In this document: in pieces, positions 11,217-16,739 of the stretch | Position numbering within the stretch: position 1 is the first letter of the stretch | How the letters are laid out: every line of letters begins with the position of its first letter | Origin: an uncultured Ruminococcus sp. | Lineage (GTDB): Bacteria; Bacillota; Clostridia; Oscillospirales; Ruminococcaceae | Length of the DNA: 64,000 nucleotides | Assembly: GCA_947345935.1 (NCBI GenBank) | Contig: CAMZZN010000001.1 | Location: 47,049 to 111,048, forward strand | Direction: 5' to 3' | The notes under the pieces: generated by a model | Seen by the model: only the letters and a program-made list of their open reading frames with translations | Told to the model about the DNA's origin: nothing | The model's database searches: none | Made by a program: the position numbers and the translations under genes

Positions 11217-13631
11217 ATGATAAAAATGAGCAGATATGATTATAAATCCGTTGAAAAGAAGTGGCAGAAATACTGGGAGGATCACGATAGTTTCAAGGCA
11301 GTTAACGACAGCAGCAGGGAGAAATTTTATGCTCTTGTAGAGTTTCCCTATCCGTCAGGACACGGTATGCACGTAGGTCATATCAAGGCTTACTCCGGAC
11401 TGGAAGTAGTATCAAGAAAGAGACGCCTTGAAGGATATAACGTATTGTTTCCAATCGGATTTGACGCATATGGACTTCCTACTGAAAATACCGCTATAAA
11501 GGAAAATATACATCCTCGTCTTGTTACGGACAGAAATATTGAGAAATTCACGAATCAGCTTAAAACTGTAGGATTTTCTTTCGACTGGTCAAGGGTTATA
11601 GATACTACCGAAGAGGGTTATTACAAGTGGACTCAGTGGATATTCCTTAAAATGTTTGAAAACGGTCTTGTTTTCCGTGACAAGACGTCGGTAAATTATT
11701 GTCCGAGCTGTAAGGTAGTTCTCTCTAACGAGGACTCTCAGGGAGGCAAATGTGATATCTGCCACAGCGATATCGTGCAGAAGACCAAGGAAGTATGGTA
11801 TCTGCGCATAACAGAATATGCTGATAAACTGCTTCAGGGACTTGAAGAAGTAGACTATCTTCCGAATGTAAAGCTTCAGCAGCAGAACTGGATAGGAAAA
11901 TCAACAGGAGCTTTTGTAGATTTCAGCATAAAGGAATGTGATGAAAAGCTCCGCATCTATACTACACGGCCGGATACTCTTTACGGTGTGACTTTTATGG
12001 TAATTGCTCCGGAGCATCCTATTTTAGAGAAGTACAGGGATAGTATTAAAAATTATGCTGACCTTGAAGCTTATAAGGCGGAATGCGCCAAGAAGAGCGA
12101 ATTTGAGAGAACGCAGCTCGTCAAGGAAAAGACAGGTGTGAAGATCGAGGGACTGACAGTGGTAAATCCTGTTACAGGCAAAGAAATTCCGATCTATATT
12201 GCCGATTACGTAATGATGGGATATGGTACAGGCGCTATAATGGCTGTTCCGGCTCACGATACGAGAGACTACGATTTTGCAAAAAAATTCGGCATTGATA
12301 TTATCGAAGTTATTAAAGGCGGAGATATTTCAGTCGAGGCATATACCGGAGAGGGAGAGCTGGTAAATTCCGGCGAACTTAATGGAATCAGCAACAAGAA
12401 GGACGCTATTGAAAAGGCTCTGGAGATTCTCGGCAGACTGGGATGCGGTGAAAAGGGCGTTCAGTATAAGATGAAGGACTGGGCATTCAACCGTCAGCGC
12501 TATTGGGGAGAGCCTATCCCGATCGTTCATTGTCCCGAGTGCGGAATGGTTGCCGTTCCTTATGAGGAACTTCCGCTCAGACTTCCGGCTGTAGAGAATT
12601 TTGAACCCGGCACTGACGGTGAAAGTCCTCTTGCCAAAATCGACAGCTTTGTAAACTGCAAGTGCCCGAAGTGCGGAAAGGACGCCAGACGTGAAACAGA
12701 CACTATGCCTCAGTGGGCAGGATCTTCATGGTACTTCCTGCGCTATTGTGATCCGCACAACGATCAGCAGTTTGCTTCAAAGGAAGCTCTTGAATACTGG
12801 ATGCCTGTTGACTGGTACAACGGCGGCATGGAGCACGTTACAAGACATATGATATACAGCCGTTTCTGGCATAAGTTCCTCTACGATCAGGGATATGTGA
12901 ATACATCGGAGCCATATGCAAAGAGAACTGCTCAGGGACTCATACTCGGTCCGGACGGCGAAAAGATGTCCAAGTCCAGAGGAAATGTCATTGACCCCAA
13001 CGACGTAGTTGACGAGTTTGGTGCAGACGTTCTCAGACTTTATGTTCTCTTTATGGGCGACTATGAGAAAGCAGCTCCATGGAGCGAATCAAGCATAAAG
13101 GGATGCAAGCGTTTTATCGACAGAGTATGGGGATTACAGGATATCCTCACTGACGGCGACAGCTACAGCGACGCTCTCAGCTCTAAATTCCATAAGACCG
13201 TTAAGAAGGTCACAGAAGATATAGAGGCAATGAAGTTCAATACAGCAATCGCTGCAATGATGACGCTTATCAATGATATTTATGCAGCTGGCAGCATCAA
13301 CAGGGCGGAACTGCACGCTTTCTGCATTATGCTCAATCCTTTTGCTCCGCATATAACTGAGGAAATATTCAGCAATAATTTTGGACAGATTCTTAGTGAG
13401 CAGAAGTGGGTGACATTTGATGAAGACCTTTGCAAGGATGAAACCATAGAGATAGTTGTTCAGGTAAATGGCAAGCTTAAAGCAAAATTGAATATTGTGC
13501 CGGGCTCTGATAAAGATTCAGTTATCGCAGCGGCAATGGCAGACGAGAAAGTTAAAGAATCTGTTGACGGCAAGAATATCATTAAACAGATATATGTGCC
13601 AAATAAACTTGTTAATATTGTTGCAAAATAA
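11217..13631 (+). CDS. leuS: Leucine--tRNA ligase
   Basis: FPYPSGxGMHVGH, TTRPDT, VPAHD, KMSKS. Start could be the ATG at 11226. Confidence 0.98.
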   Translation: MIKMSRYDYKSVEKKWQKYWEDHDSFKAVNDSSREKFYALVEFPYPSGHGMHVGHIKAYSGLEVVSRKRRLEGYNVLFPIGFDAYGLPTENTAIKENIHPRLVTDRNIEKFTNQLKTVGFSFDWSRVIDTTEEGYYKWTQWIFLKMFENGLVFRDKTSVNYCPSCKVVLSNEDSQGGKCDICHSDIVQKTKEVWYLRITEYADKLLQGLEEVDYLPNVKLQQQNWIGKSTGAFVDFSIKECDEKLRIYTTRPDTLYGVTFMVIAPEHPILEKYRDSIKNYADLEAYKAECAKKSEFERTQLVKEKTGVKIEGLTVVNPVTGKEIPIYIADYVMMGYGTGAIMAVPAHDTRDYDFAKKFGIDIIEVIKGGDISVEAYTGEGELVNSGELNGISNKKDAIEKALEILGRLGCGEKGVQYKMKDWAFNRQRYWGEPIPIVHCPECGMVAVPYEELPLRLPAVENFEPGTDGESPLAKIDSFVNCKCPKCGKDARRETDTMPQWAGSSWYFLRYCDPHNDQQFASKEALEYWMPVDWYNGGMEHVTRHMIYSRFWHKFLYDQGYVNTSEPYAKRTAQGLILGPDGEKMSKSRGNVIDPNDVVDEFGADVLRLYVLFMGDYEKAAPWSESSIKGCKRFIDRVWGLQDILTDGDSYSDALSSKFHKTVKKVTEDIEAMKFNTAIAAMMTLINDIYAAGSINRAELHAFCIMLNPFAPHITEEIFSNNFGQILSEQKWVTFDEDLCKDETIEIVVQVNGKLKAKLNIVPGSDKDSVIAAAMADEKVKESVDGKNIIKQIYVPNKLVNIVAK

Positions 13632-13658: not shown

Positions 13659-13687
13659 TTGACAATTAAAGAAAACTATGATAAAAT
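13659..13687 (+). promoter_or_regulatory. Sigma-A promoter of rpsU
   Basis: TTGACA (13659-64), 17 nt spacer, TAAAAT (13682-87) with extended TG. Confidence 0.8.
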
Positions 13688-13815
13688 AATATTATATTAT
13701 TTTTGAGTATATCTGCTGTCTTTCAGGGTATATGCTGACTGGCGTCCTTCGGGATGATTAGTATAGAGCTCGGAAGCGATTCCGGGAAACCTCTGAATAA
13801 GGGAGGGAAAGTTAA

Positions 13816-13989
13816 GTGGCAGAAGTTCGTGTTGGTAAAAACGAGTCTTTGGATACAGCTCTTAAAAGATTTAAGAGATCATGTGCAAAGGATGGCGTTA
13901 TCGCTGAGGTTCGCAAGAGGGAACATTACGAAAAGCCTTCTGTAAAGCGCAAGAAGAAGTCTGAAGCAGCTCGTAAGCGCAAGTATTGA
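13816..13989 (+). CDS. rpsU: 30S ribosomal protein S21 (absent from the ORF track)
   Basis: GTG start after GGGAGG; translates to [57 protein letters not shown]. Confidence 0.97.
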
Positions 13990-14012: not shown

Positions 14013-14040
14013 AAAAGCGGACCCGGAGGGTTCGCTTTTT
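14013..14040 (+). terminator. Intrinsic terminator after rpsU
   Basis: AAAAGCGGACCC-GGA-GGGTTCGCTTTTT hairpin ending in a T tract. Confidence 0.8.
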
Positions 14041-14086
14041 CATTTATATTTTAGTAAACGGATATTTTGTAGATCTTGGAGGTATT

Positions 14087-14593
14087 ATGGGATCAATAAT
14101 TACGGCTGCATTCCGGCGGGTAACTGATATCACACCGGACATACTCAAAAGTCTGGGGATAAGGGGACTTATCCTTGACCTTGACAATACGCTGACAACT
14201 CATGATAATCCTGTTCCCGGCGAGGGCGTTCTTAACTGGCTTGAGCTTATGAAAAAAAGCGGCATAAAGCTGATAATAGTTTCCAATAATCACCCTCCGA
14301 GAGTCAAACCGTTTGCGGATATGCTGGGGCTGGAATTTGTCAGCGAGGGAAAAAAGCCTCTTACAAAGGGATTCCGGGAGGCGAAAGCTAAAATGGGACT
14401 TCCGAAAAAAAGCATAGCCGCTGTGGGAGATCAGATATATACCGATGTTTTAGGAGCGGTTCTTTTTGGTATAAAAATGCTTTATGTAGAACCTATTGAA
14501 CATGAGAAAACAACATTTTTCAAGGTGAAGAGAAAGTGCGAAAAGCCGTTTCTGCCGAGAAAATACTATAATGAACAGGAGAAAAAACAATGA
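14087..14593 (+). CDS. YqeG-family HAD IIIA phosphatase
   Basis: DLDNTL, VSNN, KKP, VGDQIYTDV. Confidence 0.9.
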   Translation: MGSIITAAFRRVTDITPDILKSLGIRGLILDLDNTLTTHDNPVPGEGVLNWLELMKKSGIKLIIVSNNHPPRVKPFADMLGLEFVSEGKKPLTKGFREAKAKMGLPKKSIAAVGDQIYTDVLGAVLFGIKMLYVEPIEHEKTTFFKVKRKCEKPFLPRKYYNEQEKKQ

Positions 14594-15021
14594 TTAAAAA
14601 AATACTTGTAATACACGGTCCGAACCTCAATCTGCTCGGTGAGCGTGAACCGGGAATTTACGGCAGCGATTCCATTGAAAATCTTAATAGCAGTATTATT
14701 GACCGTGCCAGAGATCAGGGATTGGAGTGCGAGATATTTCAGTCAAATCATGAGGGGGCTATCATAGACAAGCTTCATGCAGCCAGAAATTCTTTTGACG
14801 GCGTTGTTATCAATGCCGGAGCATATACTCATTACAGCTATGCTATCAGGGACGCTATCGCTGCTGTGAAGATCCCATGCATTGAAGTACATATCAGCAA
14901 CGTTTTTGCAAGGGATGAATTTCGTTCAAAGTCGGTGATTGCTCCTGTGTGCAAGGGAAGTATAAGCGGTTTCGGTTTTGGCAGCTATTTTCTTGCTATA
15001 CAGGCGCTTGCAGAGATGTGA
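14590..15021 (+). CDS. aroQ: Type II 3-dehydroquinate dehydratase
   Basis: HGPNLNLLGEREPGIYG, QSNHEG, INAGAYTHYS, IEVHISN. Confidence 0.96.
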   Translation: MIKKILVIHGPNLNLLGEREPGIYGSDSIENLNSSIIDRARDQGLECEIFQSNHEGAIIDKLHAARNSFDGVVINAGAYTHYSYAIRDAIAAVKIPCIEVHISNVFARDEFRSKSVIAPVCKGSISGFGFGSYFLAIQALAEM

Positions 15022-15031
15022 GGTGTGAATT

Positions 15032-16096
15032 TTGACACGATTTGAGAAACTTTTCCGGGAAATTGATACCGAATGCGTCCTTATAACGTCGGATATAAAC
15101 AGACGGTATTTCACCGGTATGAAGTCCTCTGCCGGATTTGTTCTTGCGTTTCCTGAAAAATCGTATCTTCTTGTAGACTTCCGTTATATCGAGAAAGCAC
15201 GCAGCACCGTTTCTGATGCTGAGGTGATCGAGCTGAAAAAGTTTTATCCGCAGGTCAGCAGGCTGCTGAAGAAGCATGGAGCATCCAGAATCTCGATCGA
15301 GTCAGACACAATGACTGTTAAGCAGCTTAACAGCTATAAGCATATTTTTCAGGAGATCGAATTTGACAGCTCTGACGATCTCAGTAATGCCATACAGACG
15401 CTCAGAATGACCAAGGATGATGAGGAAATCTCTTGTATCAGAAAGGCGCAGGAGATCGCTGAAACAGCTTATGAAGAGCTTCTTCCGTTTATAAGGGAAG
15501 GCGTGACAGAGCGTGAGATTGCACTGGAACTGAACCGTCTGATGTTTGTTCATGGAGCGGAAGATCTGTCGTTTGATACGATCGTGCTGTCAGGGGCTAA
15601 TACGTCAATGCCGCACGGAGTTCCTTCAAATAAAAAAGTTGAAGAAGGAGAATTCGTTCTAATGGATTTCGGAGCGGTCTGGAACGGCTATCACAGCGAT
15701 ATGACCAGAACAGTCTGCATTGGAAAGCCGTCGGAGGAAATGGAGAAAGTCTACAATATCGTTTTGGAGGCGCAGCTTGCCGGGATCAGGGCTGCAAAGC
15801 CGGGCATTACCGGTGCAGAACTGGACAATGTTTCCCGTGAGATAATCGAAAAGGCCGGTTACGGTGAATATTTCGGTCATTCACTGGGACATGGCGTCGG
15901 AATGGAAATACATGAATTGCCTAACGCTTCTCATGGATATAAGAATCCTCTGAACGAGAAAGCTGTCGTAACAGTTGAACCCGGTATATATCTGGCAGGA
16001 AAATTTGGAGTTCGTATTGAAGATTTTGTCATTTTAACCGAAAACGGATGCGAAAATCTGACAAAATGTGCAAAAAAGTTAATATCTTTGAATTAA
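15032..16096 (+). CDS. Xaa-Pro aminopeptidase (M24)
   Basis: [34 protein letters not shown] start; conserved aroQ-peptidase-efp order. Confidence 0.92.
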
Positions 16097-16181: not shown

Positions 16182-16739
16182 ATGATTTCAGCAGGAGATT
16201 TCAGAAACGGCGTTACTTTTGAGCTTGACGGTCAGGTCGTTCAGGTCGTTGAATTTCAGCACGTTAAGCCCGGAAAAGGAGCCGCTTTTGTAAGAACAAA
16301 GTATAAGAATGTTATTACCGGTTCAGTTGTTGAAACTTCTTTTAACCCTACAGCAAAGTTCCCTACGGCTTTTGTTGAGAGAAAAGATATGCAGTACAGC
16401 TACAATGACGGCGATCTTTATTATTTCATGGATATGGAGACTTACGAGCAGGTTCCGATCAGCGCCTCTATCCTCGGCGACAGCTTTAAGTTTGTCAAGG
16501 AAGAAATGATCTGTAAGATCCTTTCTTATAAGGGCACAGTATTTGGAGTAGAACCGCCCAACTTTGTTGAATTGGTCGTTACACAGACAGATCCAGGATT
16601 CAAGGGCGATACGGCTACAAACGCTACAAAGCCCGCTATCGTTGAGACGGGAGCAGAGGTAAAGGTTCCGCTCTTTATTGACGAAGGTGAAAAGATCCAG
16701 ATCGATACAAGAACAGGCGAGTATATGTCAAGAGCCTGA
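16182..16739 (+). CDS. efp: Elongation factor P
   Basis: [25 protein letters not shown]. Confidence 0.98.

Follow-up and report, generated by a model that had tools for sequence, protein, structure and literature searches.

Ribosomal protein bS21 is the last, loosely bound protein of the 30S subunit; on the ribosome it sits by the helix between the Shine-Dalgarno (SD) sequence and the anti-SD end of 16S rRNA, and it modulates SD/anti-SD pairing and ribosome heterogeneity. How the gene for this protein, rpsU, is controlled is the question raised by a locus of an uncultured Ruminococcus sp. (contig CAMZZN010000001.1), in which a long 5' leader separates the rpsU promoter from the start codon. 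The stretch analyzed, here called the window, is 64,000 nucleotides (nt) long, and all coordinates are positions in it. From the position of the promoter, we infer that transcription starts at about 13694 and that the leader spans about 13694 to 13815, or some 120 nt. The comparisons described here point clearly to selection on this leader at the RNA level, and its most conserved part, overlooked in a preliminary description of the locus, is an anti-SD-like tract facing the SD of rpsU. We put at about even the chance that the leader is a new autoregulatory, cis-acting ribosomal-protein leader for bS21, in which the ribosome-binding site (RBS) would be concealed in an SD/anti-SD mimic duplex stabilized by the free protein.

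Covariation and conservation of the leader

S21 was located in 24 congeners and in 16 genomes of other families, and the bS21 encoded in the window is 89 to 100% identical to that of the 24 congeners. A covariance model of the Ruminococcus leader, R1, was used to realign 34 leaders, 32 of them distinct. These genomes, like those searched below, are samples of their groups, and no match at a score threshold does not equal absence; related species are non-independent observations, and all structures are predictions.

Folded as a single sequence, the leader forms hairpins A and B (Table 1) and a third small hairpin at -38.8 kcal/mol (z = -1.54), and 15 of 200 shuffled sequences fold as well, so that the fold is no better than chance. 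The preliminary description had taken the two tetraloops, UUCG in hairpin A and a GNRA loop in hairpin B, as a sign of RNA selection. That argument fails, since with an unremarkable single-sequence energy the loops by themselves are no evidence of selection; furthermore, they are species-specific, with UUCG capping hairpin A in only 3 of 32 species.

The evidence for selection comes from the alignment. Across the 32 distinct leaders, pairing is found in 91.9% of the alignment cells, compared to 44 to 52% when the partners are slid. Both-sided changes occur in 12 of the 22 pairs of the whole structure, and in 12 of 17 when only hairpins A and B are counted. The whole structure has a covariation score of 0.379, which none of 500 shuffles reaches, and controls slid by 1 to 3 columns score at most 0.09. 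Covariation in relatives, which the preliminary description had proposed to look for, is thus present, and its picture of a structured, selected rpsU leader stands: apart from a hairpin B deletion described below, both hairpins occur in every congener examined, with compensatory changes. Because the R1 alignment was fitted to the model, the hairpin segments were also folded species by species, free of the alignment.

The leader architecture is common to all congeners examined, promoter included. The 5' block AUCUGCUGU is followed by hairpin A, made up of GCUGACUGAC, a variable stem-loop, and GAUUAGUAUAGA, and by a stem-loop of free sequence (hairpin B); the 3' end reads AACCUCUGAAYAAGGGAGGGAAA, a few nt ahead of the start codon.

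A search of the 2.73-Mb source genome with R1, at E values up to 1, found one copy of the leader, which rules out a dispersed repeat, a concern of the preliminary description. Rfam 15 gave no match in the leader at gathering thresholds, only chance-level ones at E values up to 10, and no match to the leader in 20 related loci; a known RNA family is ruled out on these grounds. The main catalogue of ribosomal leaders (PMC7247131; Eckert and Weinberg 2020) mentions no S21 or rpsU leader, in line with the earlier statement that this one has no established counterpart. Other large surveys of structured RNAs have no rpsU in their main text (the supplements were not searched), and a literature search aimed at a bS21 mimic within the mRNA encoding the protein gave no result.

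An anti-SD-like tract opposite the SD

The pyrimidine tract AACCUCUG is nearly invariant in 35 leaders from 28 genera, and likewise in a set of 58 leaders. It is complementary to AAGGGAGGGAA (13799-13809), the tract that holds the rpsU RBS and that is invariant in 35 of 35 leaders from 28 genera. The predicted hairpin CCUCU:GGAGG, with a local energy of -6.6 kcal/mol, is present in the minimum-free-energy, centroid, and RNAalifold consensus folds. With CCUCU replaced in silico, the SD core of the 32 Ruminococcus leaders has a predicted pairing of 0.37, down from 0.96.

The 3' tail of 16S rRNA was taken from a Ruminococcus congener, the 16S 3' end not being assembled in the source genome. This congener tail ends GGAUCACCUCCUUUCUA; the tail segment CACCUCCUUUCU and the leader have ACCUC in common, and the predicted leader duplex resembles an SD/anti-SD helix. 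When AAGGGAGGGAA is set against the tail (GAUCACCUCCUUUCUA), contiguous pairing is found only at GGAGG, and the conserved flanks of the SD are therefore not explained by pairing with the ribosome.

The core is not confined to Ruminococcus. R1, used on one genome per genus from 150 genera of the family, matched 27 of them, and common to those genera are AACCUCUG, a short hairpin, and then CAAAGGGAGGGAAU and the start codon. A second covariance model, R2, was built from the 50-nt core and searched in 151 family genomes, an order sample, and a class sample. It matched 60 of the 151 family genomes; on inspection of the DNA, four weak matches turned out to lie away from rpsU, so that the count comes to about 55 of 150 genera. 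Family matches of at least 27.7 bits adjoin rpsU with one exception (L123, 31.6 bits). The order sample showed the core upstream of rpsU in two further families, in variant sequences. The class sample of 150 genomes, 145 of them outside the family and outside the order's families f13 and f14, gave three R2 matches, none adjoining rpsU.

The two conserved strands are linked in most genera by an inner hairpin of 3 bp. Across 58 leaders, each of these three pairs shows both-sided changes (C-G to U-A, or U-G). This covariation argues that a real helix joins the strands, with ACCYCU opposite AAAGGGAGG. Ruminococcus has lost the inner hairpin and gained hairpin B. Variant lineages keep the complementarity in other letters, i.e., CCCCUGC(C) with (G)GCGG-A-GGG, CUCCU with GGGAG, and CCCUU with AAGGG. 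That divergent lineages retain the complementarity in these different ways argues for the pairing of a pyrimidine tract with the 5' part or the core of the SD as the conserved property.

The weak R2 matches away from rpsU (24 to 32 bits) are L123 (G135:C12:112972-113154), L126, L127, and L130; in each, a pyrimidine tract is hairpinned onto an SD resembling AAGGGAGGGAA, e.g., CCCUUUCC...GGAAAAGGGAGGGAA.

Hairpins A and B

Hairpin A is paired in 95.3% of the alignment cells, with both-sided changes at 6 of 10 pairs, and it forms in all 32 distinct species folded singly, from quite different sequences. The inner CGUCC-UUCG-GGAUG stem given in the preliminary description is retained. Its 7-bp outer register, AUGCUGA/UUAGUAU (13732-38/13758-64), is not supported: it shows no both-sided change and does not rise above shuffles, and 12 and 22 of the 32 species cannot form the first and second of its two outer pairs. 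The minimum-free-energy solution instead uses ACUGG/UUAGU (13738-42/13758-62), a register contiguous with the inner stem; where other genera have a single CUGA beside the stem, this register is the sole option.

The flanks of hairpin A, CUGAC and GAUUAGUAUAGA, are conserved. Several other genera also have hairpin A between CUGAC and UUAGUAUA, with stems differing in length, and in other genera UUAGUAUA directly abuts AACCUCUG. At the DNA level the flanks (CTGACT...TAGTAT) resemble -35 and -10 hexamers, and the model aligned true promoters of other genera at these positions, so that a second promoter was considered. The distance between the flanks runs from about 25 to 36 nt in L047, L057, and L069, the loci examined from other genera. 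Because the stem varies in length and the spacer covaries as an RNA stem, the flanks are not a second promoter.

Hairpin B is paired in 80.3% of the alignment cells, with both-sided changes at 6 of 7 pairs; folded singly, the segment forms a hairpin in 31 of the 32 species, at -5.8 to -12 kcal/mol. Its sequence is free and its stem is kept. It is a Ruminococcus-specific insertion, missing from most other genera, and one Ruminococcus species lacks it, with identical leaders at L019:1395-1515 and L044:1911-2031. The CUCGGAA/UUCCGGG stem of the preliminary description is thus upheld, and the AGAG/CUCU stem drawn around it is not, having one-sided changes only. An extended form of this outer stem, UAUAGA/UCUGAA, was considered as one arm of an SD on/off switch and is unsupported on the same ground; it fails in four species that have UAUAUAG (L001, L003, L020, and L025), and it is impossible wherever UAGUAUA abuts AACCUCUG, as in some other genera. 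A perfect 6-bp UAUAGA/UCUAUA stem is found in L017 and in the L019/L044 leader, where it surrounds the hairpin B deletion, and L039 has UAUAGA/UCUAUG, 6 bp with a terminal U-G. The outer stem could therefore form in some species, and the switch idea is a minor possibility.

The 5' block and the start codon

The nearly invariant block AUCUGCUGU is complementary to UGGCAGA (13817-13823), which spans the start codon and codons 2 and 3. The long-range helix UCUGCUG:UGGCAGA is compatible with 90.5% of the alignment cells, and all substitutions at the variable positions of the block are wobble-compatible transitions. The 3' strand is invariant for coding reasons, with the first codons GCA GAA GU(U/A) identical in 34 of 34 leaders, which places it outside the reach of covariation. 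A long-range helix between AUCUGCUGU and UGGCAGA that sequesters the start codon is thus possible. Alternatively, the block may lie inside a local hairpin, P0 (13706-12/13730-36), which is weak and is paired in only 60.6% of the cells.

Proposed mechanism

The leader has the anatomy of a translational operator, since it contains no internal terminator, its conserved elements end at the SD, and the SD helix is marginally stable. The sole terminator-like site, at 14013-14039, lies after rpsU, and no U-run follows either hairpin A or hairpin B; a terminator/antiterminator leader acting by transcription attenuation would have an intrinsic terminator within it. We infer that the C-tract/G-tract helix forms in vivo and limits translation, with bS21, as the encoded protein the natural candidate, being by hypothesis its ligand.

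In the mechanism that we propose, AACCUCUG would imitate the anti-SD end of 16S rRNA and pair intramolecularly with AAGGGAGGGAA to give an SD/anti-SD mimic helix. When bS21 is in excess over the 30S subunits able to take it up, the free protein would bind this helix as bS21 sits beside the real one on the ribosome, and hairpin A with its conserved flanks would probably contribute to the binding. By locking a marginal helix (about -6.6 kcal/mol), bS21 would block 30S binding and lower the translation of rpsU; when bS21 is scarce, the helix would breathe and the strong SD would be used. Hairpins A and B would be modules of the Ruminococcus lineage placed upstream of a family-wide core. Rather doubtful, and offered tentatively, is the further proposal that the cis anti-SD/SD duplex is an autogenous bS21 operator, that free bS21 reads SD/anti-SD helices by sequence and shape, and that cells titrate it with a mimic made from the RBS of rpsU itself.

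Comparison with known systems

One close parallel is the OLE RNA. Halalkalibacterium halodurans bS21 binds an intramolecular SD/anti-SD mimic duplex in OLE RNA at about 0.67 uM; inverting conserved G-C pairs in the duplex abolishes binding, whereas pairing-preserving changes elsewhere do not, and for no other RNA outside the ribosome has binding of free bS21 been shown (PMC12054373). In its stem P6 a pyrimidine anti-SD-like tract (CCUCCU, compared to CCUCU here) faces an SD-like purine tract, and both cases come from Bacillota. OLE differs in being a noncoding RNA of about 600 nt that belongs to a ribonucleoprotein complex and whose SD-like strand is not a functional RBS. There is no sequence or Rfam relationship; in the Rfam search the leader did not match the OLE consensus (about 600 nt), and only the principle of a mimic duplex is in common.

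Among autogenous leaders (those of L10, L20, S15, and S4, and the candidates in PMC7247131), the likeness lies in a conserved, covarying 5' untranslated structure that is restricted to a lineage, is predicted to overlap the RBS, and may plausibly mimic rRNA next to the encoded protein. In contrast to those, what is mimicked here would be the SD/anti-SD helix, with the SD of rpsU serving as one of its strands. By these analogies the leader may constitute a new class within the ribosomal-protein leaders, working like the bS21 site of OLE P6 and unrelated to it, an assignment that we regard as being as open to doubt as to belief.

Two other systems concern rpsU directly. In Flavobacterium johnsoniae, bS21 homeostasis works through an unusual, highly conserved SD region of rpsU (PMC9976891, PMC7797042), and a 2024 review knows rpsU regulation only for Flavobacteria (PMC10931766). 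The signal there is an SD:16S complementarity of 9 to 13 bp, read by bS21-free ribosomes in an SD-poor organism and with no cis anti-SD, whereas the leader described here has an ordinary contiguous complementarity of 5 bp in an SD-using organism, together with a cis anti-SD and extra hairpins. For Francisella tularensis rpsU2, the 5' untranslated region and the first codons suffice for control by bS21 (PMC13374519); that case differs in that control acts through the stability of the mRNA, neither of two predicted stem-loops is needed, and the element and mechanism are unexplained (PMC13374519).

Evidence against the mechanism and alternative explanations

Several points weigh against the bS21 mechanism. 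The C-tract/G-tract helix is invariant and hence shows no both-sided covariation. Three registers fit 97 to 99% of the cells in the 58 leaders and are indistinguishable: (i) CCUCU:GGAGG, (ii) CUCU:AGGG, and (iii) a continuous helix with one C-A mismatch. Two of the three cover only the first Gs of the SD, and a U-to-C change in seven leaders is compatible with register (ii) only. Moreover, a G-rich SD pairs in silico with almost any U/C-rich leader. When the upstream sequence is dinucleotide shuffled, the pairing of the SD falls only from 0.74 to 0.63 in Ruminococcus and from 0.62 to 0.60 in other genera; it is not significantly above the shuffles in Ruminococcus, the family, or the class, which makes for weak thermodynamic evidence. 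At the threshold used, no match came from about 95 of the 150 family genera sampled. Whether free bS21 binds RNA specifically outside OLE is a question that the Francisella authors themselves stress (PMC13374519), and bS21 binding and repression at this leader are predictions for which we see equal chances either way.

The alternative that survives best dispenses with a ligand altogether. The hairpins would shield the mRNA from 5'-end-dependent decay, and the SD hairpin would constitutively adjust translation from a very strong SD to what a ribosomal protein made in stoichiometric amounts requires. A structured 5' region with a marginal SD hairpin (-6.6 kcal/mol) fits this explanation, as does hairpin B, whose free sequence and dispensability in the L019/L044 leader are those of a spacer or stabilizer; the ligand, moreover, is so far a proposal from sequence. 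However, tuning of this kind needs no near-invariance of about 8 plus 11 nt across dozens of genera amid drifting surroundings. It also leaves the conserved single-stranded flanks of hairpin A (CUGAC and GAUUAGUAUAGA) unexplained, and such conservation usually marks a binding site. With some 20 nt near-invariant across dozens of genera and exclusive to rpsU, we consider this explanation unlikely.

The conserved G-rich SD tract before rpsU is itself unusual, with GGAGGGAGGG in 21 of 29 Clostridia genomes as described below, and it recalls the only proven mechanism of bS21 autoregulation, that of Flavobacterium, which also acts via an unusual rpsU SD (PMC9976891). By that mechanism, 30S subunits free of bS21 would initiate better on the rpsU SD, and scarcity of bS21 would thereby raise rpsU translation without any binding of the free protein. 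It requires a sequestered anti-SD, an SD-poor genome, and 9 to 13 bp of complementarity, but here there are no 9 to 13 consecutive pairs, only GGAGG being contiguous. The neighboring gene (start at 14087) also uses an ordinary GGAGG SD before its ATG (14070-14086), an observation on one gene and not a genome-wide count, and the model is silent on the cis anti-SD tract. Furthermore, E. coli bS21 reportedly promotes SD pairing, going by what PMC12054373 and PMC10931766 cite, so that the feedback would be positive and not negative. As the leader has a cis anti-SD but no extended complementarity to 16S rRNA, we find this explanation quite unlikely.

A different trans factor could also be the ligand, e.g., another ribosomal protein, an assembly protein, an initiation factor, an RNase, or a small RNA that pairs with the C-tract or the 5' block, with bS21 not sensed directly. 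Ligand identity is not derivable from sequence, and the AUCUGCUGU block and the hairpin A flanks have no assigned partner. But the element is tied to rpsU, by its single match in its own genome and by the adjacency to rpsU, except in L123, of family matches at or above 27.7 bits, and known ribosomal leaders usually bind the protein that they encode; we judge such a factor very unlikely. An RNA thermometer, in which a short, imperfect SD hairpin melts with temperature, is scarcely credible: the SD helix is short with a G-U pair and the leader has a weak partial likeness to Avashort (RF02699; 19.3 bits, E = 0.33), but that score is far under the 88-bit gathering threshold, the hosts live at constant gut or rumen temperature, a ribosomal protein is no heat-shock gene, the extra modules are unexplained, and the near-invariance that disfavors passive tuning disfavors a thermometer too.

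If the bS21 leader is confirmed, an S21 class would join the ribosomal leaders, a second natural RNA ligand for free bS21 would be known, and rRNA mimicry would take a new form, with the SD of the mRNA itself supplying one half of the mimic. The anti-SD mimic opposite the rpsU SD is a concrete, easily testable operator, and the leader alignments provide a covariance-model seed for annotating rumen and gut Oscillospirales.

rpsU leaders of other Clostridia

Across the class, the exact tract GGAGGGAGGG stands before rpsU in 21 of 29 genomes from many families (loci L131 to L159), usually as CGGAGGGAGGGAA/AU, and near variants (GGAGGGGAGGG and GAGGGGAGGG) occur in 4 more. No Rfam family covers 20 such G-tract rpsU loci, and a generic sequestration test of the class-wide G-tract was not significant (0.60, compared to 0.55 for shuffles). 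If free bS21 does read SD/anti-SD helices, this near-universal tract may reflect the same logic with lineage-specific partner strands, governing bS21 across the whole class and linking that control mechanistically to the bS21 binding of OLE RNA.

Other Clostridia have a second, different conserved motif about 20 to 45 nt upstream of rpsU (L131, L148, L151, L152, L149, L153, and L146), which reads ...CC(C)GGCACAAUUG... or CCGCGCACAAUUGAUAGUAGCGGAGGGAGGG. Through CCGC or CCCG it can pair with the (G)CGG that opens the G-tract, and it is probably a separate leader class. A CCCUU tract facing GCAAAGGGAGGG is a further candidate in the rpsU leader of another genome.

Organization of the locus

The features of the locus are collected in Table 1. 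The preliminary description placed a leader of about 120 nt between a promoter and rpsU, with coordinates and sequences that are all correct, and the promoter is indeed near-consensus, with 11 of 12 consensus matches and the TG present. The layout TTGACA-N17-TGnTAnAAT/ACT is also visible upstream of rpsU in the 24 congeners. With its own promoter and its own terminator after the gene, rpsU is a monocistronic unit.

Table 1. Features of the rpsU locus, in window coordinates; structures are predicted
Feature	Position	Strand	Description
leuS	11217-13631	+	upstream neighbor of the rpsU promoter
Promoter	13659-13687	+	-35 TTGACA at 13659, 17-nt spacer, TG-extended -10 TAAAAT ending at 13687
Conserved 5' block AUCUGCUGU	13711-13719	+	nearly invariant in alignments A2 and A5
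Hairpin A	13738-13762	+	ACUGG-CGUCC-UUCG-GGAUG-A-UUAGU; 10 bp, one bulged A
Hairpin A inner stem	13743-47/13752-56	+	CGUCC/GGAUG, UUCG cap
Conserved linker GAUUAGUAUAGA	13756-13767	+	columns invariant or nearly so; overlaps the 3' strand of hairpin A
Hairpin B	13769-13786	+	CUCGGAA (13769-75)/UUCCGGG (13780-86), GCGA cap
Anti-SD-like tract AACCUCUG	13788-13795	+	ACCUC in common with the 16S rRNA 3' tail
Predicted SD-sequestering hairpin	13790-13806	+	CCUCU (13790-94):GGAGG (13802-06), loop GAAUAAG
Extended SD tract AAGGGAGGGAAA	13799-13810	+	GGAGG core at 13802-13806, 9 nt before GTG
rpsU (bS21)	13816-13989	+	57 amino acids, GTG start
Intrinsic terminator	14013-14039	+	12-bp stem, 6 G-C pairs, T-rich tail; 3' of rpsU

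An ATG at 13754 opens a 63-codon frame that overlaps rpsU in the list of open reading frames (ORFs). The matching triplet is GTG in most congeners, and ATG recurs only in L008, L035, and L039.

At gathering thresholds, the whole 64-kb window gave no T-box, no match to any other Rfam family, and no tRNA-type match. The upstream gene leuS (11217) appears to lack a T-box leader, a kind of leader common in Bacillota. On the plus strand 3' of rpsU lie ORFs of 168 (14087-14593), 143 (14590-15021), 354 (15032-16096), and 185 (16182-16739) amino acids, which look, judged by sequence alone and in that order, like a HAD-type phosphatase, a type II 3-dehydroquinate dehydratase, a Xaa-Pro aminopeptidase, and elongation factor P.

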